Source: Candidatus Shapirobacteria bacterium (GTDB taxonomy: Bacteria > Patescibacteriota > Microgenomatia > UBA12405 > BS750m-G30). Taken from it: 64,000 nucleotides of DNA. The notes under the pieces were generated by a model. The model saw only the letters and a program-made list of their open reading frames with translations, was not told the DNA's origin and searched no databases. The position numbers were made by a program, and so were the translations under genes. Shown here in pieces: positions 31,184-47,236 of this stretch. The stretch covers positions 7,272 to 71,271 of the forward strand of contig JADHWP010000001.1 in NCBI GenBank assembly GCA_016783425.1, in the 5' to 3' direction. Each line of letters begins with the position of its first letter. Position 1 is the first letter of the stretch.

Positions 31184-33748
31184 ATGAAGATTAAAGTTGA
31201 TCGAGAAATATTTGAAAAATGGCCTGATTTAAAAATTGGGGTAATGGTTGGTTTGGGGCTAAATAACACCGAAGCCAAACAAAAAAGTCTGGAGTTGCTG
31301 CGAGCAGAGGAAAAAAACCAGCAAAAGCTAATAAAGCTTGAAGAATTGGAGAATCAGGACTTTGTTCGAGCTTGGCGTCAGGTTTATCGTGATTTTGGCG
31401 CTTCACCGAAAAAGTATAAATCGTCAATTGAGGCTTTACTTACCAGGGTATTAACTGAAAAAGAATTACCAGATATTAATCCTTTGGTTAACTTTTATAA
31501 CTACCTTTCTTTAAAATATCATCTTCCTTTTGGAGGAGAGGATTTGGATAAAGTAAAAGGAGACGTTTCTCTTGACTTTGCCAAGGGCAGCGAGAAAGGT
31601 AAGTACATTGGTTCAGATAAAGTAGAGTCAGCCCTGCCCGGGGAAGTAATTTACCAAGATGAATTAGGTTTCATATGCCGAAGATTTAACTGGCGGGAAG
31701 CGGACCGAACCAAATTTACGCCCAAAACCAAAAACGCTATTTTAGTGGCCGAACTATTGCCTCTCGGCAAATCGGAAACACTACAAAAAGCAATTAAGGA
31801 ATTGACTGATTTAGTAGAAAAAGAATTAGGCGGAAAAGTAGCGGTGGCTGTTTTAGATAAACAAAATCCGGTTTTGGAATTTGATTTTGTTTCAGGAAGT
31901 AAATTAACAAGCGGGGACTTGGCCCTTGACAAAATGAAAAAAGTCGAGAAAAAAGAGATTATTGCTAAGTTTAAGCTGCCTACACTTATTACCCCTTTGC
32001 CTGAATGGCTGCCGGAGGAGCGGATAAAAAAGGCTCTTTATTTGGCTTGTGAGGAGCTGGGGAAAGGCTTGGTTTTAAAGGATGAAATTGAAGTTAAACA
32101 CCCGACTTTAGGGGGACACGGGGATTTTGCTTCCAATATTGCTTTGGTTTTAGCTAAAAAACTTAAAAAAAATCCAGGGGAAATAGCCAAAAATTTAGTT
32201 GAGAAAATTAAAGATCAGTCTTTAGATTGGGTTGGAAAAATTGAAACAGCCGGTCCTGGCTTTATCAATTTTTGGTTAAGCAAGGAATATTTATTTAAAC
32301 AAGCCCGGGGATTTTTGAAAGACAATTTTTTTAAAGAAAAGCTGGGGAAGGCGGAAGAGGGGAAAGTGGCAGTCATTGATTATTCCGCTCCTAATATTGC
32401 CAAATCTTTTGGGATTGGACATTTGCGTTCCACTAGCATCGGCCAAGCCATTTACAATCTTTATTCTTTTTTGGGTTGGGAAACTATTGGGGACAATCAT
32501 TTGGGAGACTGGGGAACCCAATTTGGAAAGCTTATTGTGGCGATAAAAAAATGGTGGCCAAAAGAGTTGCAGGAATTAACGGTTGAGGAGTTGGAAAAGC
32601 TATACGTTAAGTTTCACACGGAAGCTAAAAAAGACAAAAGCCTGGAAAATGAGGGTCGGGCTTGGTTTAAAAAGTTGGAGGACGGGGATCAGGAAGCAAA
32701 AGAGATTTGGCAAGTTTGTACGGACGTTTCTTTAAAAGAATTTAAGCGGATTTATGATTTATTGGGAGTAAGAATTGATTATGCTTACGGAGAGGCCTTT
32801 TATCATTTTGGCGGGTGGATGGAAAAAGTGCTGGCTGATTTAAAAAAGAGAAAGTTAGTCAAAAAAAGCCAGGGGGCGTTGGTAATTGAAATTCCGGAAA
32901 TAAAAGTGCCGGGAATGCTGGTCAAATCAGACGGAGGCACGACTTATCTTTTTCGGGATATGGCGACCATATTTTTTAGAATGGAAAAATGGAACCCGGA
33001 TTTGGTGATTTACGAAGTCGGGGCAGACCAGAAATTTCATTTTCAGCAGGTATTTGCCGCTTCTCAAAAAGCAGGATATATTGATAGCAAAAAACTAGTC
33101 CATGTTCCTCATGGGCTAATTCGCTGGAAGCATGGCAAGTTTTCCACCCGCAAAGGCGATACCATTCATTTGGAAGAAATTTTAAAAGAAGGAATTGAAA
33201 AAGCCTATCAAATAGTGGAAAAAAGCCAGACCAGCGAAGGCTTGAACAAAAGTGAAAAAATGAAAATTGCCAAGGCGGTCGGAATTGGAGGAGTGAAATT
33301 TAATGATTTAAAGCAGGAGCCGGAAAAAGACATTATTTTTGAGTGGGAAAAGATTTTAACCCTAGCAGGATATTCTGCTCCTTATCTCCAATATACCTAT
33401 GCTCGTTGTGCCTCGGTTTTAGCAAAAGCAGAGAATTTAAGTTTTGAAAAGATTTCTTTGAGTTCAGGTCTTGAGAAAGAAGAACTTTCCTTGTTGCGCA
33501 GCTTCTACCAGTTTCCAGAGGTAATTTTAATTTCTGCCAATAACTTCGCCCCTCACCTACTGGCGCAGTATTTATTTGATCTGGCGCAAAAGTTTAATCT
33601 TTTTTACCAAAAACACCGAATACTTTCAAACTCCAAACTTCAAACTTCAAACACTCAAGAATTTAGACTGTTTTTAACTAAGATTGCTGCTCAAGTTTTG
33701 AAAATGGGGTTGGAAATTTTAGGAATTGAAGTGCTGGAGAAAATGTAG
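31184..33748 (+). CDS. argS: Arginine--tRNA ligase with N-terminal B3/B4 tRNA-binding/editing-like domain fusion
   Basis: 854 aa; residues about 270-854 are ArgS (APNIAKSFGIGHLRST HIGH region, DALR C-terminus); residues about 1-260 resemble the PheT B3/B4 domain. Confidence 0.85.
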   Translation: MKIKVDREIFEKWPDLKIGVMVGLGLNNTEAKQKSLELLRAEEKNQQKLIKLEELENQDFVRAWRQVYRDFGASPKKYKSSIEALLTRVLTEKELPDINPLVNFYNYLSLKYHLPFGGEDLDKVKGDVSLDFAKGSEKGKYIGSDKVESALPGEVIYQDELGFICRRFNWREADRTKFTPKTKNAILVAELLPLGKSETLQKAIKELTDLVEKELGGKVAVAVLDKQNPVLEFDFVSGSKLTSGDLALDKMKKVEKKEIIAKFKLPTLITPLPEWLPEERIKKALYLACEELGKGLVLKDEIEVKHPTLGGHGDFASNIALVLAKKLKKNPGEIAKNLVEKIKDQSLDWVGKIETAGPGFINFWLSKEYLFKQARGFLKDNFFKEKLGKAEEGKVAVIDYSAPNIAKSFGIGHLRSTSIGQAIYNLYSFLGWETIGDNHLGDWGTQFGKLIVAIKKWWPKELQELTVEELEKLYVKFHTEAKKDKSLENEGRAWFKKLEDGDQEAKEIWQVCTDVSLKEFKRIYDLLGVRIDYAYGEAFYHFGGWMEKVLADLKKRKLVKKSQGALVIEIPEIKVPGMLVKSDGGTTYLFRDMATIFFRMEKWNPDLVIYEVGADQKFHFQQVFAASQKAGYIDSKKLVHVPHGLIRWKHGKFSTRKGDTIHLEEILKEGIEKAYQIVEKSQTSEGLNKSEKMKIAKAVGIGGVKFNDLKQEPEKDIIFEWEKILTLAGYSAPYLQYTYARCASVLAKAENLSFEKISLSSGLEKEELSLLRSFYQFPEVILISANNFAPHLLAQYLFDLAQKFNLFYQKHRILSNSKLQTSNTQEFRLFLTKIAAQVLKMGLEILGIEVLEKM

Positions 33749-33750
33749 GA

Positions 33751-35244
33751 ATGGTTGAAAAACATTACCAATTTTACTGGCGAGAACTTGAAAAAAAACA
33801 AGAAGTTTTAATTTCCTCTTTTATTCCTACTTATTTGCAGATGCAACCCTCGCTTCACCCCTTGGCTAATAATCCCCAAAAGGTGGATGGGGGAGCTTTG
33901 AGTTATGCTTTAGGCCGCCTGCCCAACTGTATTGGCCAGGTAGACAGGGTGTTGCTGGGCCAAAGTCGAGGAGATTTTGCCAAAGCGGGTTTTAAAATAA
34001 GCGAAGCCCAGGAAGCGCTAACTAAAGCTCGAAAAAGGCGCTGTTACTTTCTGCCAAACAAGGCTACTTTAGCCTGCTATATTGCTTCAGCAACGGATGT
34101 TGACGATTTGGTTAACGCTTTAATTGCCTACCTTATTGAAAAAAGAAAACAGGGGGAGCAAAAGGAGATTAGTGTTCAACTGCTGGCTGATCATGAAGTG
34201 GGATACCGCCAAATTGCCCAAAGCTGGTGGACGCAAGTAAGAAATAATTTTTTGGCGCTGGGATTGGAAGATAAGCCCCTATATTTTATTTCTTCCAATT
34301 TACACGGGCTGGTAAACATTATTGGCGGTTTTGCGCGCAGTAAGCAGGTGGAGATTTTTGACTATATTCAAAAAAGTCAACCGGAAATGTACCGGGAGTG
34401 GTTAAAAATCGAAAAAGGGGAAAATAAGTTAAGAGTTAATCATTTTCTTTATTATCTTTCCAAGTTGTATTTTGAAACCCACCCCAAAGCCTTTGCCGAA
34501 AAATTAAGGTTTGAAGAGAAAATAGGAATTAAACAGGTAAGATCGGTGGAGGGGTTGGATTGCAACGCTCAGCTCATTCCTGTTTCTTTGCTGGGAACCA
34601 CCCAATCGTTGGATCCCCACTTAAAAGTTAGTTATCCAAGCGAGCTTGCTAAAAGCGAAGCCTTAATTATTAATATTCAGTATCCGTTAGGAATGTCCGC
34701 CTACTATCTTCTTTCCGAGCTTTTGGAAAACCTAAAGCTACTCAAGGGAGTTTACATTATTGGCAAGGCGGCGATTTTAGCGGGACAAGTAGGGGATATT
34801 CAGATTCCGAGCACTGTTTTTGATAAAAATTCGCGGCAAACTTTTTTGTTTCCTAATATTTTTAACCAGAAGTTTCCCTTTGCCTCTTTTCAGGCCAGTA
34901 TCTTAAAAGAGCAAAAAGCAGTATCGGTTAAAGGGACTTTTTTGGAAAACCAAAAGCAGTTGGAAGGCTATAAAGAGGCTAATTTTAATATTGTAGAGAT
35001 GGAATCCGGGCCCTATCTTAAGGCTTTATCTGAATATCAATCTGAAGTTAATTTAGGACCGGAAGGTTATTTTCACCTGGACAATCTTCCTTTGGAATTA
35101 GGGATTATTAATTATGCCTCTGATAATCCTTTTGCCGAGGAAAGTTTAGCCAAAGGAACTTTGGGATTACGGGGGATAGAGTCTACTTACTTAGCGGGCT
35201 TGGCCGTTTTGGAGCGGATTATTCAAAAAGAAGAAATGGCTTGA
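33751..35244 (+). CDS. Hypothetical protein with C-terminal nucleoside phosphorylase (PNP_UDP_1)-like region, possibly AMP-nucleosidase-like
   Basis: 497 aa; C-terminal IVEMESGPYL and GKAAILAG segments recall the phosphorylase superfamily. Confidence 0.4.
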   Translation: MVEKHYQFYWRELEKKQEVLISSFIPTYLQMQPSLHPLANNPQKVDGGALSYALGRLPNCIGQVDRVLLGQSRGDFAKAGFKISEAQEALTKARKRRCYFLPNKATLACYIASATDVDDLVNALIAYLIEKRKQGEQKEISVQLLADHEVGYRQIAQSWWTQVRNNFLALGLEDKPLYFISSNLHGLVNIIGGFARSKQVEIFDYIQKSQPEMYREWLKIEKGENKLRVNHFLYYLSKLYFETHPKAFAEKLRFEEKIGIKQVRSVEGLDCNAQLIPVSLLGTTQSLDPHLKVSYPSELAKSEALIINIQYPLGMSAYYLLSELLENLKLLKGVYIIGKAAILAGQVGDIQIPSTVFDKNSRQTFLFPNIFNQKFPFASFQASILKEQKAVSVKGTFLENQKQLEGYKEANFNIVEMESGPYLKALSEYQSEVNLGPEGYFHLDNLPLELGIINYASDNPFAEESLAKGTLGLRGIESTYLAGLAVLERIIQKEEMA

Positions 35245-36543
35245 GCGGGCTGACTTTTTAAAGCCCAGTTTTTTGAGTATTTTGGTTGTGGTTTGGGGAT
35301 ATTGGCAAATATCTTTAAAAATTATTTTAAGATTTCTTTTTTGACCCCGATGGAGAATAAACCGATAAATTGTTTTTCCGTGCTTTTGTAAGTAGCGCTT
35401 GTGTTTTAAAAAGGTGCCGATAGAGGCCTGCTTTTCTTTCTGGTTGATCATTTTCAAGCCAATATGACCGAGGGGGTGATTATTTTTCGTAATTAGCCAG
35501 TAGGCAAAAGCCGGGTTGTAAATTAAATTATTGAGCCAGGCTTTGATTTGGTCTTTGCTTTTGGGGGTAAAGGTAAAAAGATTCTGTCTTGTTTGGGGTT
35601 TTTTAAATTCTCGTAAATGGAAACGCAAAAGTTTGGAGTCGGGAGAAAAAGGAATAAATTCCAATCCCTGATATTTTATTCGCTTGGTGTTTGGCTTGCT
35701 GATATTAAAAATAAAACCCTCTTTTTTAATTGTTTTTAAACAGGAAGAAAAGCCAAGATTGGTTAATTTTTTTCGTAATCGAGAGATATACTGGTCCAGA
35801 GCATAGTCGGAATATTCATAATTTTCGCCCCAAAGGTGGTGAGCTAGTTTTTCCCGATTGATTATTTTATCCTGATTTTTTGCAAAAATTTCCAGTCCTT
35901 TTTGTTGCTGGAGTGAAAGATGAGAGGTAACTTTTTTAAGATTAACCTCTTTTTCTTGGCCAGGGAAACTTAATTGCAAGTAGTTTTTTAATGCTCTGTC
36001 AACCTTTAAGGTTGACAGAGTGTGATTGGTTTTTTTAATAATTCCGGTTTTAAGCAGATAATCAAGTTCATTTTTTTGGTAAAAAAAAGATTGTAAGTTT
36101 TTTTGGGAGATTTGCTGCAAAATTAGCTGCTGATTTTCAGAAAGGAGGCTAAAAAACAAATTGGGCTTAGACTGGCGGCCAGGATCAGGAAGATAAATTA
36201 GCCGTTTAAGAAAATAGCTCTCTTTAAGCTGGTTATAAAGCCTTTCTTGTTTTAGATTTTGGTCGAAAACCAGAATGATTCTGGCTTGCTTAAAGTTTTT
36301 TTCAAAAGCGCGCTCCAACCTAATTAGAAGTGGCAGGGAGGCTAAATAAAAATTGGGAAAGCTGATAATGCTTAATCGAGAAAAATTAATTTTGTTTAGA
36401 CTCATTTTGCTTTCGATCGTGAACAGTTTGGCCCCGGGCCAAATTTTTCTAAGAGAGGAAATTGGAAACAAGGGAGCGGTAATTAGGGTTTGAAAATGAT
36501 ATTTGGCCAAATTAATTTTGGCCCTCCCAGCCCAGTTGTCCAT
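35191..36543 (-). CDS. Putative regulator: ATPase-like N-region, central OmpR/PhoB-type winged helix, C-terminal GNAT-like domain
   Basis: 450 aa; LEIFAKNQDKIINREKLAHHLWGENYEYSDYALDQYISRLRKKL matches trans_reg_C and is paralogous to the 8716-9687 protein; carries a REP palindrome in frame (LSTLKVD); divergent from repeat copy 1. Confidence 0.6.
   Translation of the reverse strand: MDNWAGRAKINLAKYHFQTLITAPLFPISSLRKIWPGAKLFTIESKMSLNKINFSRLSIISFPNFYLASLPLLIRLERAFEKNFKQARIILVFDQNLKQERLYNQLKESYFLKRLIYLPDPGRQSKPNLFFSLLSENQQLILQQISQKNLQSFFYQKNELDYLLKTGIIKKTNHTLSTLKVDRALKNYLQLSFPGQEKEVNLKKVTSHLSLQQQKGLEIFAKNQDKIINREKLAHHLWGENYEYSDYALDQYISRLRKKLTNLGFSSCLKTIKKEGFIFNISKPNTKRIKYQGLEFIPFSPDSKLLRFHLREFKKPQTRQNLFTFTPKSKDQIKAWLNNLIYNPAFAYWLITKNNHPLGHIGLKMINQKEKQASIGTFLKHKRYLQKHGKTIYRFILHRGQKRNLKIIFKDICQYPQTTTKILKKLGFKKSARSSHFFFLNNPLQNGQAR
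35997..36017. repeat. REP palindrome (TGTCAACCTTTAAGGTTGACA) lying in frame inside the 35191-36543 CDS
   Basis: Exact 21-bp palindrome (7 codons) identical to the intergenic copies. Confidence 0.85.
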
Positions 36544-36559
36544 AGTATTATATTATATC

Positions 36560-36628
36560 CAACTTGTCAGGATTTTGCAAGAGAGGTGTCAAGAAAAATA
36601 AGTCTCTGGACAATATACTATCAGTTAC
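36560..36628 (+). promoter_or_regulatory. Copy 1 of the shared upstream element (TGTCAGGATTTTGCAAGAGAGGTGTCAAGAAAAATAA) with putative promoter TTGCAA-17-ATAAGT
   Basis: Near-identical to copies at 38454 and 40526; 11-bp-phased TGTCAGG/TGCAAGA/TGTCAAG direct repeats. Confidence 0.6.
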
Positions 36629-38392
36629 ATGGGCAGACTGGAAAGAGGGGATTTAACACGGCCACTCCTCGTCATGATATCTGAACCTTCGTTCCATGAG
36701 GGAGAAAAAAGGCTGATTACTGGCCCTGGTGGAATGATTTTTGATATTGAAAGAACAAGGTCGGGTCTAAATGTTTTGAGTCGTCCCCAGCTTGAGGGAG
36801 CTCGTGGAGAACAGCTTTCTTATAATGAATCGAGCGAATCGTTTTCTCTTTTTTTTACTTATTCTAAACAGGGAGAGGGATACGTTCTTAATGAAGGCCA
36901 GGTGACCAACGGAGTTTTTTTCCGGGGCCAAGAACAGTCAGCGGTTATTTTTGCCGAAGTTACCCAAGGAGCTTTCGAGGAAGATGTTTCCTTGGGCGCA
37001 TTTCTCTATTTGCCTCCAAATTCAGTTCCTGATCAAGCGGTAAAAGATCTTTTTGGAGAAACAAGACTTTATGACCCGATAGAGTTAGAAGGAGTTCCTT
37101 TTAATCCCGTGGCTATCGAATTCACTGATTTAGAAGAAATATTTTCGCAGATAATTGACGAAAAATTAGTCGAAAAAATTAAGCCAATAGCCGAGCGGTT
37201 TTTAACTCAAAGAGAAGCGTTTATTGCTTCTCAAGTCAGTTTTCCTTTGGGGGTTGAAAAATTACTTACTGTTTCCGGCGGATCAGAACTTTTTGCTTCA
37301 TTTCCCGCTTTTCTTCTAACCAAGTTAGTCGAGCAGTTCAGAACAAGTGGCGCAGTACACTTATTTCAAGTCGAGAGTGTTTTAAAAACAGTTCTGGCAG
37401 GAGTAAAAGACCAAAAAGAAAAATGGGCCCTAGCCTCTTTTTTTTATAATCTATTTGGCAAAGGGCATTGTTTAGTCAGTAATTATGATCAGTATCAAGG
37501 AGGCGTTTCAGGATTGATAATAGACTTATTGGTAGAAACAGGGACACTTTCTTCTGGTGGAAGCATAGAGGCTATTTGGCGTGAGGGTTTTAGCGGAATG
37601 ACTCAAGCCGCTTTTACTTATTGGCTTGAGAGGCAATGGTTGAAAAGGGAGGAGGAGAGATTATTTACAAAGCAAGCCTTTTTTCATACTCCCCTAAGAG
37701 AGACACACGAGCCCTTGGATGGAGAATTATATGAAAGATGGCTTGATTTAGCTAATAAAGTGGGAAAAAAAGCGAGAAACAACGAAATTAATTGGCCTCA
37801 TTTTGCTAATAAACTGGCGGAACTAGCTTTGATGGGTAAATTTTATCCTGATGGAAATGTCCATTTTTTTCACTGGGGATTTGGCGTAGAAAATAAGAGA
37901 TATGCTGGTGATAGAGGGTTTTTTTCCAGAGAGATTTACCTTTTGACTAATCCTAATGGAGTGAGATTGGTTCTACCTTTGCCGCCGTCAGCCTTTTTGC
38001 CAGCTACTATTGAGATTGATTGGAGCAAAAGTGGAAAAGGGTGGTTAAATCCCGAGCTTTGTTTTTATTGCTGGGTTAAACCCGATGCGCCTTTTGATTA
38101 TAGTCAGGCTACTGCTGTTTCCTTTAATCAGTGGGTGGGGATCGGTGATTTTAAAAACTTTAGGCGGATAAGGCTCCCTTTGGGGCAAAAAAGGGGTGGC
38201 AATGTTGAAGCCTGGATCAGTCAAGGCTGGCAAATAGTTGAACAGTTTAGGGACAATGCAAGTGGCGCGATAATGTTATTGCTTCCTTTTAAAGAGAGGG
38301 AAGGCAAAGTAGCGGTTAATCAATTTTTAGATCTTACTAGTAAAAAGTATCCAGCTGAGCAATATTTTGAGGTTCCGGTAAATATTTATTAG
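36629..38392 (+). CDS. Hypothetical protein (587 aa), downstream of shared element copy 1
   Basis: Long ORF; no recognisable domain. Confidence 0.6.
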   Translation: MGRLERGDLTRPLLVMISEPSFHEGEKRLITGPGGMIFDIERTRSGLNVLSRPQLEGARGEQLSYNESSESFSLFFTYSKQGEGYVLNEGQVTNGVFFRGQEQSAVIFAEVTQGAFEEDVSLGAFLYLPPNSVPDQAVKDLFGETRLYDPIELEGVPFNPVAIEFTDLEEIFSQIIDEKLVEKIKPIAERFLTQREAFIASQVSFPLGVEKLLTVSGGSELFASFPAFLLTKLVEQFRTSGAVHLFQVESVLKTVLAGVKDQKEKWALASFFYNLFGKGHCLVSNYDQYQGGVSGLIIDLLVETGTLSSGGSIEAIWREGFSGMTQAAFTYWLERQWLKREEERLFTKQAFFHTPLRETHEPLDGELYERWLDLANKVGKKARNNEINWPHFANKLAELALMGKFYPDGNVHFFHWGFGVENKRYAGDRGFFSREIYLLTNPNGVRLVLPLPPSAFLPATIEIDWSKSGKGWLNPELCFYCWVKPDAPFDYSQATAVSFNQWVGIGDFKNFRRIRLPLGQKRGGNVEAWISQGWQIVEQFRDNASGAIMLLLPFKEREGKVAVNQFLDLTSKKYPAEQYFEVPVNIY

Positions 38393-38405
38393 TTATCTTA
38401 TTTGT

Positions 38406-38450
38406 TGTCAACCTTAAAGGTTATCGGGTCATCAACCTTTAAGGTTGACA
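38406..38450. repeat. Composite REP element (insert tatcgggtca), reverse complement of the 19104 copy
   Basis: Exact match in opposite orientation. Confidence 0.85.
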
Positions 38451-38453
38451 AGT

Positions 38454-38527
38454 ATTTGCCCTGTCAGGATTTTGCAAGAGAGGTGTCAAGAAAAATAAAA
38501 AGAGGTGGTTTACACTATAGGGCAAAT
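38454..38527 (+). promoter_or_regulatory. Copy 2 of the shared upstream element with conserved 5' UTR (AAGAGGTGGTTTACACTATA); inverted repeat ATTTGCCCT/AGGGCAAAT brackets it and overlaps the start codon
   Basis: 66 bp identical to copy 3; the IR arms could form a hairpin sequestering the ATG. Confidence 0.6.
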
Positions 38528-39458
38528 GAGGGAAATTCTTAGAAGAAAAGAATCGGGTAAAAAAGAAGTCAAATGGTCAGATGAGCTTTTGGCGGGAGCT
38601 ACAGGGATTGAGGGACAAGTGGCGGAATTAATAGCGGGAAGAGAATTAAAAAGATTTAGGTTGCCCCAAGCTTTAATCCAAGATTTTGGAGTTGCTTCCG
38701 CTTGGGCTTTAGAGGCTTTTCCTGGCTGTGAATCAGGGGTGGCTATTCATTGCTTTTGGCCTCAACTTGCTGAATTTGAAAATACGATTAGAAAAAAAGG
38801 AGGGGTTTATAGGTTGCGTCGTTTAATGCCTGAAATAATGCGAGCAAAATTATCCAAAAACCTTCGGGTTTGCAGTAGATTCGGCAGGGATCCAATAAAA
38901 TGGTCTGCTGAATTTTTAGTCGAAAATAGGGGCGCGCTTATACCCGAAATAGGAATGGAAATCAATCCTAAGGGAGAAGTGGATGAACTCTCTTTTTACC
39001 TTGATCTTGGAGAACTTGGTTTTTCTAAAAAAAATGCTTTTCCGAATCTGGTAGTTGATAAAAAAGGAAATGTGGAACTTCGCAGATGGCAGCCACGTGA
39101 TTGGCATTTTTCGGACGGCGAGTGGATTATTGAAGCTTATGATCCCCAAAACCCCAATCACACAAGCTCTTTAAAGGCAATAAAAGAAGGATTGCCAATG
39201 CTTCAATTTCTTTGGCCTTCTTTGCTGTATCCAAAATGGAAATTTGGCTGGGGTGATTTAATAATTAATGCCAATGAACCCGGTTCTTCTGATAGTTCAC
39301 CAACAGATGTGAGAATCAGCCGGTGGGCAGGAGTGGGGCAAAGCAGGCATCTTTTCGAGTTTTATACTTCTAGATCAGGGTGGAAATTAGAAAATAAGAT
39401 ATGGGATCAAAGAAGACGGTGGGGAAGAAGAATGGCCAGTGTTCATATAAATTTTTAA
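38505..39458 (+). CDS. Hypothetical protein (317 aa from GTG 38505, or 310 aa from ATG 38526)
   Basis: ORF downstream of shared element copy 2. Confidence 0.6.
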   Translation: MVYTIGQMREILRRKESGKKEVKWSDELLAGATGIEGQVAELIAGRELKRFRLPQALIQDFGVASAWALEAFPGCESGVAIHCFWPQLAEFENTIRKKGGVYRLRRLMPEIMRAKLSKNLRVCSRFGRDPIKWSAEFLVENRGALIPEIGMEINPKGEVDELSFYLDLGELGFSKKNAFPNLVVDKKGNVELRRWQPRDWHFSDGEWIIEAYDPQNPNHTSSLKAIKEGLPMLQFLWPSLLYPKWKFGWGDLIINANEPGSSDSSPTDVRISRWAGVGQSRHLFEFYTSRSGWKLENKIWDQRRRWGRRMASVHINF

Positions 39459-39644
39459 TTTGCTTTACTAGGGGGGTGGGGTGGCGAATTGTTGAAAGGG
39501 ATGGCTTCTGAAAGGCAACCCAAATAGGCTTGTTGCGTTATAATAATCTTAGGCACGGAAAATGTCATTAGCTTGTGCCTAAAAAAATAATTTCGTACCA
39601 AGCCTAATACTTCCGGGAGAGCCACAGGCTCTAGCTTGCGGAAT

Positions 39645-40079
39645 CTATTTTTGTGACTCTAAAAATTCCTCTATTTTTTGGCAGTATTTAATAATATCAC
39701 CCAATTCGTATTTAATTGCCTGGTAGACTTTTTCTCTGGCTACTGATAGATATTCATGGACTAAAATATTTCTCATTCCGGCCATTTTAGCCAGTTTTTG
39801 AGCTAGTTTTTTATCAATCACTCCTAATTTGTAAAGAATGAGGAATAATTCCTTGTTTTCTCGTTTTGGTTTTTCCATTGCTGCTTGGCTGACAATGTGT
39901 GCGGCAATGTCCAGGCAGGCCTGGATAGCGACTTGCAAACGATATTCAGCGGCATCAGCAATATCAGCGCTGGCAAGAAAACTGGCCTCATTTGTTTTTG
40001 CGGCTGTTTCCTTTAACAGCTGAAGCCGCTTCCTGATTGCCGCAAGACGATCTCTAATACGCGAATGGTCGAGCATCAA
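39645..40079 (-). CDS. HEPN-domain toxin (HepT/DUF86-like)
   Basis: 144 aa; R-x4-HEY motif (RNILVHEY); overlaps the upstream MNT gene by 26 bp. Confidence 0.75.
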   Translation of the reverse strand: MMLDHSRIRDRLAAIRKRLQLLKETAAKTNEASFLASADIADAAEYRLQVAIQACLDIAAHIVSQAAMEKPKRENKELFLILYKLGVIDKKLAQKLAKMAGMRNILVHEYLSVAREKVYQAIKYELGDIIKYCQKIEEFLESQK

Positions 40080-40506
40080 TTACTCCTTTTCTAGCTAAAT
40101 TAGCGATTTGCAACTCATATTCCTGGTAAAAGTTTTTCAGGTCAAAATAATTACGAGAGATTTTAAGCTCAAAATCAACTCTTTGGTACGACTCTTTTCC
40201 CAAAAGGAGTTTTCCCTGGCTGATAACCCGAAAAGCAAAGGGCAGTGAAACAGCGTCCAGACTTTGAGTTTCGACTTTCTTTTTAAGCAGTTTAGAGAGT
40301 TGATTGGCTAGTTTGATTTGAGCGAATAAATTTTGATCTAATTTTGATTTTTTCTTATACAGAATTGCCAAATCCAGATCAGAATTTTTTTTGGCTTTAC
40401 CAACAGCAAACGAACCGTAAAGATAAACGGCGATTATTCCCTTTTGTTTTTTAAGAAAATTCTTGATTTGGTCAATTTGCATTTTAGTTAAATTCATTTG
40501 CTTCAT
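40054..40506 (-). CDS. Minimal nucleotidyltransferase antitoxin (MntA-like)
   Basis: 150 aa; YLYGSFAVGKAKKNSDLDLAIL (GS...DxD) motif. Confidence 0.75.
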   Translation of the reverse strand: MKQMNLTKMQIDQIKNFLKKQKGIIAVYLYGSFAVGKAKKNSDLDLAILYKKKSKLDQNLFAQIKLANQLSKLLKKKVETQSLDAVSLPFAFRVISQGKLLLGKESYQRVDFELKISRNYFDLKNFYQEYELQIANLARKGVIDARPFAY

Positions 40507-40525
40507 TCTAGCATATAGTTTGTCT

Positions 40526-40598
40526 ATTTGCCCTGTCAGGATTTTGCAAGAGAGGTGTCAAGAAAAATAAAAAGAGGTGGTTTACACTATAAGATAAG
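40526..40598 (+). promoter_or_regulatory. Copy 3 of the shared upstream element plus conserved 5' UTR
   Basis: Identical to copy 2 over about 66 bp. Confidence 0.6.
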
Positions 40599-41471
40599 AT
40601 GGCTAGAATAGAAGCAGAAGGCAAAGAAGTTAGGGGTCAAATAGAAGAGCTACTTAGACAAGGGAGAGAATGGTATCCGGTTTTTGGATTGGGCGGAGAG
40701 TTAGGAGAAGCCGTGGTTTTAAGTGGCAGGGGGGACTATTCTCCAATTGATGAGCTAGAAAATGTGACGGAAACTTGTTTAAGTTATGGTCTTTGGGCTG
40801 ATCTTGAAAAGGTAATTATCGGAAAATTGCTCTGCTTGACCAGTCTTGATAATAAAGAAGTTATTCAAGAAGCATTTGAATTAACAGCCAGTCTTTTTTA
40901 TCGGGGGGCTGGTGAAGAAACAGAAGGGAAAATTGAGAAACTTATGTCTTTGAGGGTGATCCTGGAAGATCAATGTGATAAAGAAAAGGTTCTTGATTTA
41001 GCTGGTCTTTTGTCTTCTTATCTTCCCGGAAGAGGGTTTTGGGCCGAGCCCAATTTACTTCAGGCTTACATTGGAAGGAAGCCCGCCTCTATAAATGTGA
41101 AAATAAAAGATGGCAGTCCGGTTAATTTAGAGGCCAGTTTTTGGGTAAAAATGGAAAAGGAAGCGGACAAAGTAAAACCTATTTACACGCTAAGCTACCC
41201 AATTAGCCTTTTTCCTGGTCTTTACACTCCTAGCGATTCAGGAGATTTGATATTATTGGATGAAAGCTTATGCTTGCGGTCTGCAAATGACACGGAGTTG
41301 GAGTTGTTAAGGTTGGCTCGGAATACAGAAGCTAGTTGGGAAGAAAGAGAAAAGCTAGAGTATGAGTATCGACTGCCGCTTCCTCAATTAATTACCAGGG
41401 CTTCAATTGAAAAAATGTTAACAACAGGAGAACCACCTTTTGGCTTAGTGGCTGATTTAATAGACAAATGA
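40599..41471 (+). CDS. Hypothetical protein (290 aa), downstream of shared element copy 3
   Basis: ORF; no recognisable domain. Confidence 0.6.
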   Translation: MARIEAEGKEVRGQIEELLRQGREWYPVFGLGGELGEAVVLSGRGDYSPIDELENVTETCLSYGLWADLEKVIIGKLLCLTSLDNKEVIQEAFELTASLFYRGAGEETEGKIEKLMSLRVILEDQCDKEKVLDLAGLLSSYLPGRGFWAEPNLLQAYIGRKPASINVKIKDGSPVNLEASFWVKMEKEADKVKPIYTLSYPISLFPGLYTPSDSGDLILLDESLCLRSANDTELELLRLARNTEASWEEREKLEYEYRLPLPQLITRASIEKMLTTGEPPFGLVADLIDK

Positions 41472-42526
41472 GGGAAGAAAGAGAAGAAAAGCAAATAGGA
41501 GTAATTGTTCCCGAGGAGTTGCGGGAGTCTATGGCCGGGAGGATTGAAGTGAGATTGGGGGAGTTGCGAGAAAAAGACTTGATTCCTTTAGATGGACAAT
41601 TTTTGAAAGAACTATGGCAAAGAACCCTGGATAGAGCCATGTTTTTTTTGGAAGATGGTGTGAGCGAGTATTTTAATGTGTCCCGGCACCCTCACGAAGA
41701 TGGCGGCTATTTTAAAGTAGAAGAAACCGGAAAATTTCGGAAGTTTATAGAGACTGTTACAGATGAAAACGAGCCCATTCCGCCTCAAGTGAAACCATTT
41801 GTGGATGGCCGTTTTAATTTCTGGCCGAGTGGTGTGCGAATAACAGTTTTCCCAAGCCACGATTTATCCCTTGAACTTTTAAAAGGCCATTATGTTTATA
41901 TTGGCGAAATAGGAAGCAAGCCGATTGCTCAATGTAGGGGCGATTATTTCGCAAGAGAAATTGGAATTACCGGCGGAGAAGCTCCAGTTAACCCTTTTGA
42001 ATTATTGGCTATTAATGATACCTGTCCGGCAAGTTTATTGGTTGCCAGAGTGGAACAATTATCAGGCCCTACTCAGATTTATTTTCTGGTTGAAGACGAG
42101 AGAGATAATAATAAGGTGTATAAAAGGAAAGCCGGGATTTATTTTCTTGGCCCAGACGGAAATTGGCACCTATACGGTTTAGCGGCAACGGTAACTGACT
42201 ATTATCCTCCCCCGGGACGGGCAAACGCTAGAGGAGATCATGGAAATGACTATTATAATACAGCCGCAATTGTTAGCGCCCACCAAGAAAGAAGCCCGCT
42301 GAATCCACCATTAAACGAAGGAAGCCTTGCTTTTGCCCGCTTTGAACAAATTGGTGGACGAGCAGATTGCACTGTTGAGGGGGATCAATTAGTAATTAAG
42401 CAATGGGCTCCTTGGGGGGGAGGTCGTAAAGAAAAAGTAAAAATCGTTCATAGTTTGCCGCTGGTTATTAAGGCAGATGATGTATTAAAATACTTCACCG
42501 CTTTAAAGCCCATAAATAGCATTTAA
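41468..42526 (+). CDS. Hypothetical protein (352 aa), co-operonic with the previous gene (4-bp overlap)
   Basis: ORF; no recognisable domain. Confidence 0.6.
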   Translation: MREEREEKQIGVIVPEELRESMAGRIEVRLGELREKDLIPLDGQFLKELWQRTLDRAMFFLEDGVSEYFNVSRHPHEDGGYFKVEETGKFRKFIETVTDENEPIPPQVKPFVDGRFNFWPSGVRITVFPSHDLSLELLKGHYVYIGEIGSKPIAQCRGDYFAREIGITGGEAPVNPFELLAINDTCPASLLVARVEQLSGPTQIYFLVEDERDNNKVYKRKAGIYFLGPDGNWHLYGLAATVTDYYPPPGRANARGDHGNDYYNTAAIVSAHQERSPLNPPLNEGSLAFARFEQIGGRADCTVEGDQLVIKQWAPWGGGRKEKVKIVHSLPLVIKADDVLKYFTALKPINSI

Positions 42527-42769: not shown

Positions 42770-44644
42770 ATGAGCAAGAAAAAAATTGATCCGACTGATT
42801 TTATTGAAATTGGCCGGCTTAACGGTGGCGGCCGCAAGCTTATCGTGGATTTGGATGAAATTGGGGAAATTATTGTTTCCAAAGGGAGCAAGGACGATGC
42901 CAATAAAATCAATACCCCCGAGGGTACTTCTTTTTCCTTGTCCGAATATTTAAAAAAAGAGTACGCTTTACACAAGGTTTTTTCAAAAGATGTAGCCGAA
43001 GCTCATCGCAAGGGAGACATTAAACTGCAAAAACTCCAGTTTATTGACCGACCCTATTGTTCCGGTCAGGGGTTGGAGTATATTAAAAAATTTGGCTTAA
43101 CTAAGTACGCTTCTTTTGCGGCGGTCAAGCCGGCCGGCCACATTGACGCTTTAATTGACCACATGATGCGCATGACCATGGCCTTAAGGGCCCATTTTGG
43201 CGGGGCGGTTGGCTGGGATGCGCTTAATATGTATATGGCCCCTTATCTTGGCGGCATGGGGGATCGGGAGATAAGACAAATTGCCCAAAGAATTATTTAC
43301 CAGTTCAACCAAACCGTTGGCCCGCACGGCGGCCAGCCGGTTTTTTCGGATATTAATCTTTATTGGGAGATTCCCGATCATTTTGCCAGGGTGCCGGCGA
43401 TTGGGCCAAGGGGGGAGTTTACCGGCCGAATGTACAAAGATTATGAAAAAGAAGCCCAGGCTTTAGTTTGGCAGCTTTTGAATATTTATAAAAGAGGAGA
43501 CGCTAAAGGCAAGCCTTTTTTCTGGCCCAAACCCAATGTTCATATCACTACCAGGTTTTGGCAAACTCCGGGACACGAGGAATTCTTAGAGCATGTTTGC
43601 GGCGTGGCCGCTAAAATGGGCAATCCCTATTTTATTTTTGACCGCGGTTCAGTGGCTAAAATTTCCGAATGCTGCCGCTTGCAGTTTGAGCTGTCGAAAG
43701 ACGATTTAAAAGAAGCCAAAGAGCCCTGGAAAATGCGCTACGCCGCTTGTCCTTATCTACCCGTAAACTTGCCCCGGGTAGCTTACGAGGCTAATCATGA
43801 TGAAAAAAAGTTTTTCCAAATTTTAGGCGCGCGCCTGGAGCTTTTGACCAAGGCTCATCTTCAAAAAAGCCGATTTTTAAAAAAGCTTTTGGAAATGGGG
43901 CCAACCGGGCCCTTGGGCATGCTGACCTTAACAAGCAACGGGGACAAAGAGCCGTATTTACGATTTGACAAAATGCCCTATATGAATGCGGTTGGCGGGC
44001 TTTCCGATGCGGTTAAGTTTCATCTTGGCAAGGCCCTGCATGAATCAGACGAGGCCTTGAAATTCGGTTTAAGAGTAACTGCTTTTATGAAGAAGAAAAC
44101 AGAAGAAGAAGGTAAAAAGGCGGGTTTAAAAATTCTTCTTGACCAGTCTCCGGCGGAATCAACCATGTATCGGTTTGCCAAAATGGATTTGGCCCAGTTT
44201 CCCAAACAAGCCAGGCAAATTGTTCATGGTGATCTTAAAAGCGGGCAAGTGTATTACACTAACTCTTCTCAAATTGATGTGGATGCATCTTTGGATGTTT
44301 TTGAACGGATTGAACTGGAGGGCCGATTTCATCCTTTAATGCAAGGCGGGGCCTTAACCCATATTTGGCTGGGCGAAAACTTGCCTTCGGCTAAATCTTT
44401 GGCCAGTTTAGTTAAAAAAGTCTTTTTTAAAACCCAGAATACTCAAGTCGCTTTTTCTCCGGAATTTACTTTGTGTTCTGATTGCGAGCAGACCAGCCGG
44501 GGCAAAAGAGAGAGTTGTCCTTTTTGCGGTAGCAAAAAAGTGGACTGGGTCACCCGGATTACCGGCTATTATACTTTTGTGAAGCAGTGGAATAAGGGTA
44601 AACTAGGGGAGTTAAAGGATCGGAAGAAAAACAGGATTAAATAA
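42770..44644 (+). CDS. nrdD: Anaerobic ribonucleoside-triphosphate reductase (class III), paralog 1, no ATP-cone
   Basis: 624 aa; active-site ISECCRL, C-terminal Zn-ribbon CSDCEQ...CPFCG and glycyl-radical motif RITGYY. Confidence 0.85.
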   Translation: MSKKKIDPTDFIEIGRLNGGGRKLIVDLDEIGEIIVSKGSKDDANKINTPEGTSFSLSEYLKKEYALHKVFSKDVAEAHRKGDIKLQKLQFIDRPYCSGQGLEYIKKFGLTKYASFAAVKPAGHIDALIDHMMRMTMALRAHFGGAVGWDALNMYMAPYLGGMGDREIRQIAQRIIYQFNQTVGPHGGQPVFSDINLYWEIPDHFARVPAIGPRGEFTGRMYKDYEKEAQALVWQLLNIYKRGDAKGKPFFWPKPNVHITTRFWQTPGHEEFLEHVCGVAAKMGNPYFIFDRGSVAKISECCRLQFELSKDDLKEAKEPWKMRYAACPYLPVNLPRVAYEANHDEKKFFQILGARLELLTKAHLQKSRFLKKLLEMGPTGPLGMLTLTSNGDKEPYLRFDKMPYMNAVGGLSDAVKFHLGKALHESDEALKFGLRVTAFMKKKTEEEGKKAGLKILLDQSPAESTMYRFAKMDLAQFPKQARQIVHGDLKSGQVYYTNSSQIDVDASLDVFERIELEGRFHPLMQGGALTHIWLGENLPSAKSLASLVKKVFFKTQNTQVAFSPEFTLCSDCEQTSRGKRESCPFCGSKKVDWVTRITGYYTFVKQWNKGKLGELKDRKKNRIK

Positions 44645-46809
44645 TGCCCAGCGAAATCAGCAAATACAATAATGGCAATGGCAATGGTAATGGCTTAACG
44701 ACCAAGCAGGCCAAATACCTAGAGGGCGCCAAAAAACATGGGGCAACGGATACAATGTTCTTTGTTTCTACTTCAGACGAGGCTTTAAAAGAGTGGGATG
44801 TAACCCAAATTGCCAAGCGCTTGATTATTGAAACGGGTATGGGAGAAAAGTTGGCAATGAGGATTGCCAAGGTGGTAGAGGAGAAGATTTTGGCGGCCAA
44901 GCTAAAACATGTTTCTACTAACCTTATTCGGGAATTAACCAATGCCGAGCTTCTTTTCCGGGGATTGGAAAAATATTATGACAAGCATGTGCGCTTAGGA
45001 GTGCCCATTTATGATGTTCACCAGATGCTCACCGAACAAAACAGAATTAATGCCAATGTGCCTCATAATACCGAAGCCACTAATTTGGCTTTAGCCCGGA
45101 ATATTAAAAAAGAGTATGCCTTGCGCCGGGTTTTTTCTAAAGACGTCGCTCAAGCTCATGCCAAGGGTGATCTTCACCTTCACGATTTGGATTTTGTGGA
45201 TCGGCCCTATTGTTGTGGGCAGTCAATTGAGTATGTAAAGAAATATGGCCTGGATATTGCCTCCAGTTTGGCGGTAGCCAAGCCAGCCAAATATGCCACT
45301 ACTTTGGTATTGCAGATAATTAAATTGGCTTCGATGCTCCAGGTTCATTTTGCGGGGGCGATTGGCTTTGATGCCGTTAATCTTTTTCTGGCTCCTTATT
45401 TAACTGGTTTTGGCAAAAAAGAATTAAAGCAATTGGCTCAAACTCTTCTTTTTGAATTTAATATGCAAAATATAGCCCGGGGCGGACAGGCGATTTTTTC
45501 GGACATTAATCTTTATTGGGAAGTGCCTGATCATTTTGCCGATACCCCGGCAATTGGGCCGGGGGGTAAATATACGGGTAAAAAATATCAGGATTATCAA
45601 AAAGAATCGCAAGAATTTGTTAAAGCCATTTTTGAGGTGTATTTAGAGGGAGACGGAGCGGGACGGCCTTTTTTCTGGCCTAAGCCTAATTTACATATCA
45701 CCGAGAAATTTTGGCAAACTCCGGGTCATCAAGGGTTTTTGCATCTGGCTTCTAAAGTAGCGGCCATTCGGGGCAATACTTATTTTGTTTTAGACCGGGG
45801 AGGCACAGCCCGAATCTCCGAATGCTGCCGACTGGCCTTTAATCTTAAAAAATCCGACCTTGAAGATGCTAAAAAGCCCTGGAAAATGCGTTACAGCGCG
45901 ATGCAGAATGTTTCTTTGAATTTGCCCCGTATGGCTTACAAAGCCAAGGGAAGGACTGATAAGTTATTTGAGGAAATTGAGCGGGGGATGGAGCTGTTGG
46001 CCAAGGCTCACCAACAAAAGAGGCGGTTTATCAAAAGACTTTTAGATATGGGCCTGCAAGGGCCCTTGGCCGCGCTGACTACCCGCCAGCTGGATGATAA
46101 TGAATCTTACTACCGCTTTGATAAGGCCAAGTTTTTAGTTGGTGTTTTTGGGGTTAACGAAACGGTTGAGTATTGCCTGGGAAAGCAGATGCACGAAAGC
46201 GATCAAGCGCTTAAACTGGGCCTAAAGATTGTTTCCCAAATGAAGAAAAAAGCGGAAATTTTAAGTAAGCGGGATAAAATGGAGTATGTTTTGGAGCAAA
46301 CTCCAGCGGAAGGGTTAACTTACCGTTTTGCTAAATTAGATAAGCGCTTTTATCCCAAAGAGGCCAAAAAAGTGATTAAGGGTAATTGGGAGGAAGATTA
46401 TATTTACTACACCAATTCCACCCAGCTTAATGTGTCCGAACCTATTGACCCTATTGAAAGAGTAACTAAAGAAGGTCTTTTTCATCCTCTAATTGACGCT
46501 GGAGCAATCAGCCATATTTGGCTCGGGGAGCAAAATCCGGATCCAAAGGCGATTGCCAGTTTTGTGAAAAAAACCTTTGATCACACCCAAAACGGCTTAA
46601 TTGCTTTTTCCCCCGAGTTTACGATTTGTGATTCTTGTATGGCAACCAGCCGGGGACTAAAAGATAACTGCCCCAAATGCGGTTCTGAAGAGGTAGACGG
46701 AGTTACTCGAGTGACTGGTTTTTATTCTCGCGTTAGCCGTTGGAATAAAGGAAAAATAGGCGAGCTAAAAGATCGGTATCGAAACGCGGGAAAGTTTCGT
46801 GATTCGTAA
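44644..46809 (+). CDS. nrdD: Anaerobic ribonucleoside-triphosphate reductase (class III), paralog 2, with N-terminal ATP-cone-like domain and NGNGNGNG repeat
   Basis: 721 aa; same motifs (ISECCRL; CDSCM...CPKCG; RVTGFY) plus an about 100-aa N-terminal ATP-cone-like region; tandem aatggc repeats at 44680-44703. Confidence 0.85.
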   Translation: MPSEISKYNNGNGNGNGLTTKQAKYLEGAKKHGATDTMFFVSTSDEALKEWDVTQIAKRLIIETGMGEKLAMRIAKVVEEKILAAKLKHVSTNLIRELTNAELLFRGLEKYYDKHVRLGVPIYDVHQMLTEQNRINANVPHNTEATNLALARNIKKEYALRRVFSKDVAQAHAKGDLHLHDLDFVDRPYCCGQSIEYVKKYGLDIASSLAVAKPAKYATTLVLQIIKLASMLQVHFAGAIGFDAVNLFLAPYLTGFGKKELKQLAQTLLFEFNMQNIARGGQAIFSDINLYWEVPDHFADTPAIGPGGKYTGKKYQDYQKESQEFVKAIFEVYLEGDGAGRPFFWPKPNLHITEKFWQTPGHQGFLHLASKVAAIRGNTYFVLDRGGTARISECCRLAFNLKKSDLEDAKKPWKMRYSAMQNVSLNLPRMAYKAKGRTDKLFEEIERGMELLAKAHQQKRRFIKRLLDMGLQGPLAALTTRQLDDNESYYRFDKAKFLVGVFGVNETVEYCLGKQMHESDQALKLGLKIVSQMKKKAEILSKRDKMEYVLEQTPAEGLTYRFAKLDKRFYPKEAKKVIKGNWEEDYIYYTNSTQLNVSEPIDPIERVTKEGLFHPLIDAGAISHIWLGEQNPDPKAIASFVKKTFDHTQNGLIAFSPEFTICDSCMATSRGLKDNCPKCGSEEVDGVTRVTGFYSRVSRWNKGKIGELKDRYRNAGKFRDS

Positions 46810-46848
46810 TTCGTTATTGGTTAATCGTAATTCGTTATTGGTTAATTG
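46803..46848 (+). repeat. Tandem direct repeat (cgtaattcgttattggttaat x2) at the 5' border of the four-helix-bundle gene
   Basis: Two exact 21-bp units; related inverted units at 47245-47300 and inside nrdG at about 48185-48215. Confidence 0.7.
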
Positions 46849-46858
46849 TGATTTATTG

Positions 46859-47236
46859 ATGAGAGACAAAATTAATAATTTTAGCGATTTAGATGCTTGG
46901 AAAATAAATCACAGGCTAGTTTTGGATGTTTACAAAACTACTAAAGATTTTCCAAAAGATGAGCGCTATGGCATTATTAATCAGTTAAGACGGGCGGCAA
47001 GTTCGATTACAGCCAATGTTGCCGAAGGTTGGGGGAGGTATCATTACGCTGATCGAATAAGGTTTTATTATAATGCTCGCGGATCTAGTTGTGAGGTTCA
47101 AAATTTCCTTGTTTTAAGTAGAGACTTGGGGTATTTAAGTTCAATAGATTATCAAAAATTGTACCTGCTGGCGACAAAAGGTCTTAAGATTATTAATGGT
47201 TTAATTCGATCTGTGGAAAAACTTAAAATTAAATAA
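46859..47236 (+). CDS. Four-helix-bundle protein (23S rRNA IVS-protein-like family)
   Basis: Start at MRDKINNF; ...RRAASSITANVAEGWGRY...ARGSSCEVQ signature of the family. Confidence 0.7.
   Translation: MRDKINNFSDLDAWKINHRLVLDVYKTTKDFPKDERYGIINQLRRAASSITANVAEGWGRYHYADRIRFYYNARGSSCEVQNFLVLSRDLGYLSSIDYQKLYLLATKGLKIINGLIRSVEKLKIK

Follow-up and report, generated by a model that had tools for sequence, protein, structure and literature searches.

Organization of the locus and the repeated element

We examined a 64-kb stretch of DNA (hereafter the window; 40.7% GC) from a metagenome-assembled genome of Candidatus Shapirobacteria, a lineage of the Candidate Phyla Radiation (CPR, or Patescibacteria), in which copies of a short element precede three sets of genes that belong to no known family. 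The first copy lies between the divergent genes for a 450-residue candidate regulator and for a 587-residue protein, here termed A587, and the other two copies precede B310 and the overlapping pair C290-D352. The proteins of the locus are entered at NCBI as ISS42_00255 to ISS42_00280, and a 99.9%-identical locus with the identical gene arrangement is present in four strain-level contigs from ENA and Logan. The features on which the analysis turns are as follows.

35191-36543, - strand: regulator, 450 aa; N-terminal region (about 1-160) uncharacterised, OmpR/PhoB-type winged helix-turn-helix (wHTH) at 209-279, C-terminal GNAT domain at about 296-440
36552-36580, - strand: predicted regulator promoter; -35 TTGCAA 36580-36575, 17-nt spacer, -10 TATAAT 36557-36552, ATG 8 nt on; promoter scan 10/12
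36565-36601, + strand: element copy 1, 37-bp core, exact match; TGTCA 36565, TGCAA 36576, TGTCA 36587; putative operator
36614-36619, + strand: predicted -10 box of A587, TATACT; offset 27 nt from the start of the proximal TGTCA, 9 nt ahead of the ATG
36629-38392, + strand: A587, orphan candidate target, 587 aa; no family match
38453-38519, + strand: element copy 2, 67 bp (core 38462-38498), identical to copy 3; predicted -10 TACACT 38511-38516
38526-39458, + strand: B310, uncharacterised candidate target, 310 aa; no family match
40525-40591, + strand: element copy 3, 67 bp (core 40534-40570); predicted -10 TACACT 40583-40588
40599-41471, + strand: C290, uncharacterised candidate target, 290 aa; leads a two-gene unit
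41468-42526, + strand: D352, uncharacterised, 352 aa; its start and the stop of C290 overlap (ATGA)

The window contains the 37-bp core (TGTCAGGATTTTGCAAGAGAGGTGTCAAGAAAAATAA) exactly three times, always on the + strand, and dinucleotide shuffles gave no match. An initial annotation of this DNA had described a near-identical 65-bp element ahead of all three genes. That description holds for copies 2 and 3, which are 100% identical over 67 bp, but not for copy 1, which over that span is only 73% identical and shares with them the core and scattered downstream bases. The same annotation had pointed to TGTCA-type repeats at an 11-bp period, and these were borne out: with the start of the first TGTCA taken as 0, TGCAA begins at +11 and the second TGTCA at +22, an arrangement found nowhere else in the window (shuffle mean 0.01-0.2). 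The distance from the end of the core to the ATG is also nearly constant, at 27, 27 and 28 nt for the starts at 36629, 38526 and 40599.

In Pho boxes, direct repeats of TGTCA recur every 11 bp, with 5'-TGTCA-3' pointing toward the target genes, and the repeats here read in that same orientation. At least two direct repeats of the TGTCA type, at an 11-bp period and abutting or replacing a -35 hexamer, are present in the element, which thus has the geometry of a Pho-box-like operator. It is a probable binding site for a cognate wHTH protein.

Conservation of the element upstream of the regulator gene

Two short contigs encode orthologues of the regulator, at 63% identity (contig L061) and at 47% identity (contig L062), and in both of them the element is directly upstream of the regulator gene, in the form CTTGACA-N4/5-CTTGCAAAATCCTGACA. 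The proposed link between element and regulator is thereby strengthened. Read along the regulator's strand, the three versions are:

Window: CTTGACACCTCTCTTGCAAAATCCTGACAAG
L061: CTTGACACCTTTCTTGCAAAATCCTGACAGG
L062: CTTGACA-TTAACTTGCAAAATCCTGACAAGG

The value of dS against L061 is 2.5 for the regulator gene and 1.36 for the adjacent DUF6909 gene, and it was not computable against L062. Because synonymous sites are saturated or nearly so at these distances, the block of 24 invariant bases is best regarded as a real footprint. The regulator itself is under constraint, with a dN/dS of 0.10 against L061.

Part of the element is taken up by the predicted promoter of the regulator gene. Its -35 hexamer, TTGCAA, is the middle repeat of the element, a palindromic hexamer, and the spacer contains the distal TGTCA (36565-36569; TGACA on the - strand), so that one TGACA repeat lies on each side of the -35, one upstream of it and one within the spacer. 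The same layout is seen in L061 (18-nt spacer, TATAAT, 8 nt to the ATG) and in L062 (16-nt spacer, TAAAAT, 6 nt to the ATG). The regulator mRNA is probably leaderless.

In L061 the divergent gene is an orthologue of A587, and the pairing of regulator and target is therefore conserved between these two genomes. The neighbours of the regulator gene in L062 differ, which indicates that its genomic context is not conserved beyond the closest species; a LexA gene follows the 47%-identical relative there (L062 1985-2605).

The conserved pattern was not recovered outside these genomes. The 24 specified bases gave 0 matches in scans of JGI metagenomes and IMG/VR, and a scan with the degenerate pattern TGTCANNNTTTTGCAANNNNNNTGTCAA of GTDB representative genomes, a collection that holds neither the source genome nor its relatives, returned unrelated matches only, mostly in Nostoc. 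These occur once per genome in several dozen Nostoc and related cyanobacteria (L006-L060), and are a conserved cyanobacterial sequence that fits the pattern by chance and is unrelated to this locus.

Domain content of the regulator

The regulator had been described as an unusual fusion of an ATPase-like region, an OmpR-type wHTH and a GNAT-like acetyltransferase. The latter two parts have matches above the Pfam cut-offs, for the GNAT domain only just. Trans_reg_C (PF00486) matches residues 209-279 (3.8e-14, 53 bits vs a cut-off of 26.2), both orthologues also match this family and share the architecture, and the closest PDB relative of the wHTH is the DNA-binding domain of E. coli PhoB (5e-8). 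Acetyltransf_1 matches residues 324-428 (6.2e-5, 23.7 bits vs a cut-off of 20.7); of the orthologues, P0004 scores 28.3 bits and P0003 19.8 bits, the latter below the cut-off. The canonical acetyl-CoA pyrophosphate-binding loop of GNAT proteins is Q/R-x-x-G-x-G/A, and the corresponding loops in the regulator and its two orthologues (QKHGKT, KNHGQA and KKYGKE) are only partly canonical, with the central G alone invariant.

The ATPase-like N-terminus, in contrast, could not be substantiated. The N-terminal ~200 residues have no match in Pfam or NCBIfam, or in the PDB when searched with the family profile, and an hhalign comparison with the P-loop-like N-terminus of a distant relative, P0005, aligned 14 columns at 0.5% probability. 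Nor is the protein a two-component response regulator: Pfam Response_reg finds no receiver domain, and alignments to the response-regulator models of NCBIfam begin only at about residue 168, all of them scoring far below the cut-offs. AlphaFold2 models were too poor for use in fold assignment, with a pLDDT of 41 for the regulator (4-sequence alignment) and of 34 for A587 (single sequence).

The family is sparsely represented in databases. A word-indexed search of 5.8 billion proteins yielded two true relatives, the 63%- and 47%-identical orthologues, and one distant protein that shares the wHTH only, while a protein-based metagenome scan with the regulator alignment found no relatives. In the literature searched we found no description of an OmpR-type wHTH fused to a GNAT domain.

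Two further observations concern the regulator and its relatives. At 35991-36023, within the regulator gene, there is a perfect 27-nt copy of a dispersed palindrome (CTCTGTCAACCTTTAAGGTTGACAGAG), in frame and coding for HTLSTLKVDRAL in the linker ahead of the wHTH; because the 63%-identical orthologue does not contain these residues, this looks like the insertion of a repetitive extragenic palindromic (REP) sequence that has been tolerated inside the gene. In addition, a 323-aa protein is encoded elsewhere in the window (8716-9687, - strand). Its N-terminus is P-loop-like (IVTLPGLGITYF), and toward its C-terminus there is an OmpR-type wHTH, not called by Pfam, with 33% identity to the linker and wHTH of the regulator. 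The protein is laid out like P0005 from JGI, and it may be a member of a CPR family of ATPase-like wHTH proteins. Its neighbour encodes a 324-aa protein (7739-8713, - strand) with no recognisable domain.

Predicted target promoters and probable leaderless starts

What all five instances have in common on the + strand is a TAnnnT box (TATACT, TACACT, TACACT, TACACT and TATATT), placed at an offset of exactly 27 nt from the first base of the proximal TGTCA; in the window it ends 9-10 nt before the start codon. Relative to this box the repeats lie at about -61 to -57, -50 to -46 and -39 to -35, and the -35 position itself reads AAGAAA. As AAGAAA is unusable as a -35 hexamer, the + strand promoter should need an activator, in a geometry that resembles that of Pho-box promoters.

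This assignment displaces the + strand promoter that had been proposed previously, TTGCAA-17-ATAAAA. The sequence at its -10 position varies (ATAAGT, ATAAAA, TATTTA and TGCTGT), the promoter scan did not call it, and its TTGCAA appears instead to serve as the -35 of the regulator's promoter on the opposite strand. The Shine-Dalgarno (SD) sequence proposed for copies 2 and 3, AAGAGGTGG, likewise had to be given up: it is 17-18 nt from the ATG, reads TAGGGTGTGG in L061, and stands in a genome whose first genes are apparently mostly without leaders, and is probably not an SD. We also moved the start of the second gene, given earlier as GTG at 38505, to the ATG at 38526, which is more likely, corresponds to a product of 310 aa, and agrees with the gene calls on the ENA contigs and with NCBI entry MBL7078081.1.

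The placement of the -10 box is not peculiar to this locus. Among 38 genes of the window that have an upstream intergenic region, 20 have a TAnnnT box ending 4-10 nt (mode 6) before the start, where about 12% would be expected, as compared with 2 of 22 packed genes; an SD is present in only 7 of the 38. Examples at 12041, 13082, 20851 (- strand), 48364, 56489 and 61900 have a TAGAAT, TAAAAT or TATAAT box 5-9 nt before the start and no SD. From these patterns, initiation in this CPR genome appears to rely mainly on leaderless mRNAs. A literature search on leaderless mRNAs in CPR gave nothing usable.

The downstream genes

The four downstream proteins had been reported to contain no recognisable domains, and we reached the same result: A587, B310, C290 and D352 have no match in Pfam, NCBIfam, PADLOC or PHROGs. 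B310, C290 and D352 were also without a match to PDB sequences, IMG/VR or translated phage records. An origin of the targets in defence systems or phages was considered and dropped, as PADLOC and PHROGs yielded no matches for any of the four, nor did IMG/VR and a tblastn search of phage sequences for B310, C290 and D352. Neither BLASTP nor phmmer --max gave any sign of paralogy among the four, and they have no similarity to the neighbours of the distant regulator homologue P0005.

A587 found only itself in a HMMER search of 1.84 billion representative proteins. Its one detectable relative is the partial syntenic orthologue in L061, at 70% identity over 360 aa (36629-37720 vs L061 3-1088; DNA identity 75-87%). 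The comparison gives a dS of 0.48 and a dN/dS of 0.35, against a dS of 1.4-2.5 and a dN/dS of 0.07-0.10 for the adjoining regulator and DUF6909 genes, so that the dS of A587 is oddly low. By these measures A587 is a real gene that is evolving much faster than its neighbours, and the values may reflect a recent exchange followed by rapid protein evolution. For the other three, database clusters at 90% identity hold one near-identical strain variant each of B310 and D352, and C290 is a singleton; their status as orphans is provisional, given that no valid sensitive homology search underlies it. Between strains there is one single-nucleotide polymorphism (SNP) per orphan gene, too few for a coding test.

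The first codons of B310, ATGAGGGAAA, recur at the 5' end of the L061 orthologue of A587. That the start region of B310 (CAAATGAGGGAAA) matches the start of this orthologue suggests that the start codon was included when the cassette was copied.

The HepT/MntA pair, dispersed palindromes and the question of an island

Between the second and third sets of genes lies a toxin-antitoxin pair, and between A587 and copy 2 a pair of palindromes:

38405-38451, no strand assigned: REP-like palindrome pair between A587 and copy 2; inverted repeat I8, 18-nt arms, 100% complementary
39645-40079, - strand: HepT toxin, type VII toxin-antitoxin; NCBIfam NF047751, 115.7 bits vs a cut-off of 60; Pfam HepT-like, 9.7e-30
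40054-40506, - strand: MntA antitoxin (nucleotidyltransferase), divergent from copy 3; NCBIfam NF047752, 86 bits vs a cut-off of 60

The interleaving of REP copies and a HEPN/MNT pair with the candidate target genes, which was noted at the outset, is thus confirmed. The hepT and mntA genes overlap by 26 nt and form a type VII toxin-antitoxin system. A possible promoter for mntA, CTGACA-16-TATATG-5-ATG, would take its -35 from the distal repeat of element copy 3; the promoter scan offers CTGACA-18-TATGCT as an alternative (9/12). Within the 186-nt gap between B310 and hepT (39459-39644) there are a G-rich run, a hairpin (GGCACGGAAAATGTCATTAGCTTGTGCC) and, on the - strand, a promoter-like sequence, ATGACA-17-TATTAT (10/12). 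The gap has no Rfam match, and could be a terminator or a small RNA.

The palindrome GTCAACCTTTAAGGTTGAC is found at 9 sites in the window, where 0.01 would be expected; three occur as pairs with a distance of 24 nt, in the manner of REP-like sequences. Because the nine sites are spread across the window, we regard it as a genome-wide repeat and not as a property of this locus.

The idea that these genes form an accessory island is only weakly supported. In its favour is the absence of known families among the genes; against it, the composition is ordinary (locus GC of 0.39-0.41, like the flanks), the gene lists and Pfam place no integrase or transposase gene within ~10 kb on either side, and no tRNA gene flanks the locus, the nearest being ~8 kb away on each side (at 27.5 kb and 50.2 kb in window coordinates). 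By these measures the locus has the marks of neither a mobile cassette array nor a genomic island. Moreover, regulator and A587 are syntenic beside the DUF6909 gene in L061, so that this pair is ancestral to at least two species and "island" is at most a loose description of the segment from B310 through D352.

A model for the element and its alternatives

We lean, by a little over even odds, toward the reading that the locus encodes an autoregulated, PhoB-like one-component activator whose operator-promoter cassette has been triplicated by duplication onto new genes. The element would be the operator and promoter of the adjacent one-component regulator, a wHTH-GNAT protein without a receiver domain, and copy 1 would be a divergent control region that serves both the regulator gene and A587. 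Bound regulator would sit on its own promoter and thereby regulate its own synthesis, probably by repression. On the + strand, three phased repeats at about -61 to -35 combined with a TAnnnT -10 and no usable -35 would constitute an activator-dependent promoter. Two duplications of the cassette, comprising operator, -10 and start region, would then have brought B310 and C290-D352 under the control that governs the ancestral target, A587. The GNAT domain would be the likely signal-input or effector module.

A number of points weigh against this model. PhoB recognises TGTCA(T/C) half-sites through T194, V197, R201 and R219 (PMC3264566). The corresponding positions in the regulator are T194A, V197Q, R201R and R219K, with one of the four identical, and because three of these four contact residues differ, the TGTCA specificity is not transferable by homology. 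The middle repeat is TGCAA instead of TGTCA, and the two TGTCA repeats, separated by 22 nt in the other two genomes, are separated by 21 nt in L062, where the divergent neighbour is an unrelated 77-aa open reading frame without a family match. The footprint is drawn from three genomes only and is partly explained by ordinary promoter hexamers. The count of three copies refers to the 64-kb window. The second wHTH protein in the window (8716-9687) could be the binder instead. Finally, both the binding of the element by the regulator and the regulation that would follow are predictions from sequence.

In the main rival reading, the element is simply a compact bidirectional core promoter that has been copied and pasted, its conserved bases being promoter hexamers (TTGCAA and sequences like TTGACA as -35 boxes for one strand or the other) and not an operator, and any binder being another protein, such as the wHTH paralogue at 8716-9687, a second protein of this type that the window does encode. 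The promoter scan scores both TTGCAA and CTGACA as - strand -35 hexamers, the latter at copy 3 could drive mntA through CTGACA-16-TATATG-5-ATG, and duplication alone can account for the 67-bp identity of copies 2 and 3. We nevertheless think this clearly less probable than the activator model. Across saturated divergence, conservation of the spacer (AATCCTGACA) and of the upstream CTTGACA is as strong as that of the hexamers, which is unexpected for spacer DNA; on the target strand, with its AAGAAA at the -35 position, the promoter should need an activator; and copy 2 retains all of the repeats even though it has no - strand gene to serve.

Two other explanations we consider very unlikely. The copies might mark the boundaries of mobile gene cassettes, as attC-like sites or as a miniature inverted-repeat transposable element, so that the orphans were inserted and not recruited to a regulon. 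Chromosomal integron arrays do hold orphan genes on one strand with toxin-antitoxin pairs interleaved, and the genes here are similarly confined to a single lineage and one strand and interleaved with such a pair; 9-bp inverted arms flank copy 2, and the dS of A587, anomalously low relative to its neighbours, is compatible with recent transfer. However, the ~10 kb on either side holds no integrase or transposase gene, composition is ordinary, the core is not palindromic, inverted arms are found at copy 2 only, and the element is fixed at the regulator promoter in three genomes and has no match in viral contigs. Still a shade less probable, in our judgement, is that the shared sequence acts as RNA, as a common 5' leader, attenuator or riboswitch, which would include the occlusion of the start codon that had been suggested for copy 2. 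Copies 2 and 3 do share sequence to within 7-8 nt of the ATG, and the arms ATTTGCCCT and AGGGCAAAT are indeed present at copy 2, where the upstream arm and the start region of B310 can form a 12-bp stem. Yet folding at copy 2 does not surpass that of shuffled sequence (z -1.25; 27 of 200 shuffles do equally well), and the upstream arm is located 5' of the predicted promoter. With the likely -10 only 9-10 nt before the ATG, a transcript would include almost nothing of the element. The upstream arm is also absent at copy 1 and in L061, the downstream arm is absent at copy 3, and the only Rfam families in the window are tRNAs.

If the activator model is extended beyond this locus, a broader picture can be drawn, which we offer tentatively and as more doubtful than the model itself. 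The wHTH-GNAT family, known so far only from Shapirobacteria-type CPR bacteria and two closely related contigs, would be a one-component switch that reads an acyl-CoA or amine signal, or that acetylates. It would activate fast-evolving orphan cytoplasmic proteins from leaderless promoters that have no -35, and its regulon would have grown by the copying of a 67-bp cassette of operator, -10 and start codon. As for the targets, they may be genes for host interaction or conflict that are specific to the lineage: A587 combines a high dN/dS with a low dS, and a toxin-antitoxin pair is interleaved with them.

Comparison with known systems

The system that the locus most invites comparison with is PhoB and the Pho box of the E. 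coli phosphate regulon. Both have an OmpR/PhoB-type winged helix (the PhoB DNA-binding domain is the best PDB match, and R201 is kept), and both have TGTCA-type direct repeats of 11-bp period that are read along the direction of transcription and replace a weak -35. The regulator described here differs from PhoB in having no receiver domain or partner kinase, in carrying a GNAT domain after the wHTH, and in three of the four base-contact residues. The site also differs from a Pho box, with three repeat units of which the middle one is TGCAA, and with a second role as the probable -35 of the divergent regulator promoter; and the mRNAs here, unlike those of the PhoB system, are probably leaderless.

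Other families likewise use the wHTH outside a two-component system, among them ToxR/CadC and SARP/AfsR/EmbR. Regulators of these types usually act as activators and have direct repeats close to the -35 as their binding sites. Their wHTH is N-terminal and is joined to transmembrane/periplasmic sensor, BTAD, NB-ARC or FHA modules, whereas in the present protein it is central, between an N-terminal region of no known family and a GNAT domain. The layout of the locus is also that of LysR-type regulators, in which regulator and target are divergent, share one control region, and have the regulator's -35 overlapping the operator. Such an overlap predicts autorepression together with activation of the target. 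Unlike the LysR case, the DNA-binding fold is different, the repeats are direct and not inverted, and the operator-promoter unit has been copied to further genes.

The mechanism that we propose, a direct-repeat operator with divergent autoregulation, is conventional, and the interesting parts are the wHTH-GNAT architecture, a domain combination unreported in the literature searched, and the duplication of the cassette. Very few recognisable regulators are present in CPR/Patescibacteria, and most of their lineage-specific genes are unannotated. Against this background the locus offers a concrete pairing of a cis-element with a candidate regulator in CPR, with a 27-bp operator candidate and three target units. 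Should the activator model be true, it would be a clean and recent example of the expansion of a regulon by duplication of an operator-promoter-start cassette, and if the regulator does bind the element, the orphan targets would be the first genes of the lineage for which a control input is known, and this would provide a handle on their function.

Flanking genes and strain differences

The locus is flanked by argS and the DUF6909 gene on one side, and by two nrdD genes on the other. The arginyl-tRNA synthetase (31184-33748, 854 aa) has an additional N-terminal B3_4 domain, whose normal home is the PheRS beta subunit, before the usual ArgRS domains. The nrdD genes (anaerobic ribonucleotide reductase; 624 and 721 aa) are in tandem and are followed by a gene of the 23S-rRNA-IVP family (42770-47236 in all). 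The second nrdD is altered in one strain contig, L001, where about 100 nt stand in place of a stretch of about 350 nt (44898-45250) and the gene is called at 491 aa.

SNPs between the strains are bunched. There are 9 in 240 nt of the DUF6909 gene (34596-34836) and 7 in 37 nt of the first nrdD (44521-44557), mostly synonymous in both cases. Such clustering between 99.9%-identical strains suggests short recombination tracts.

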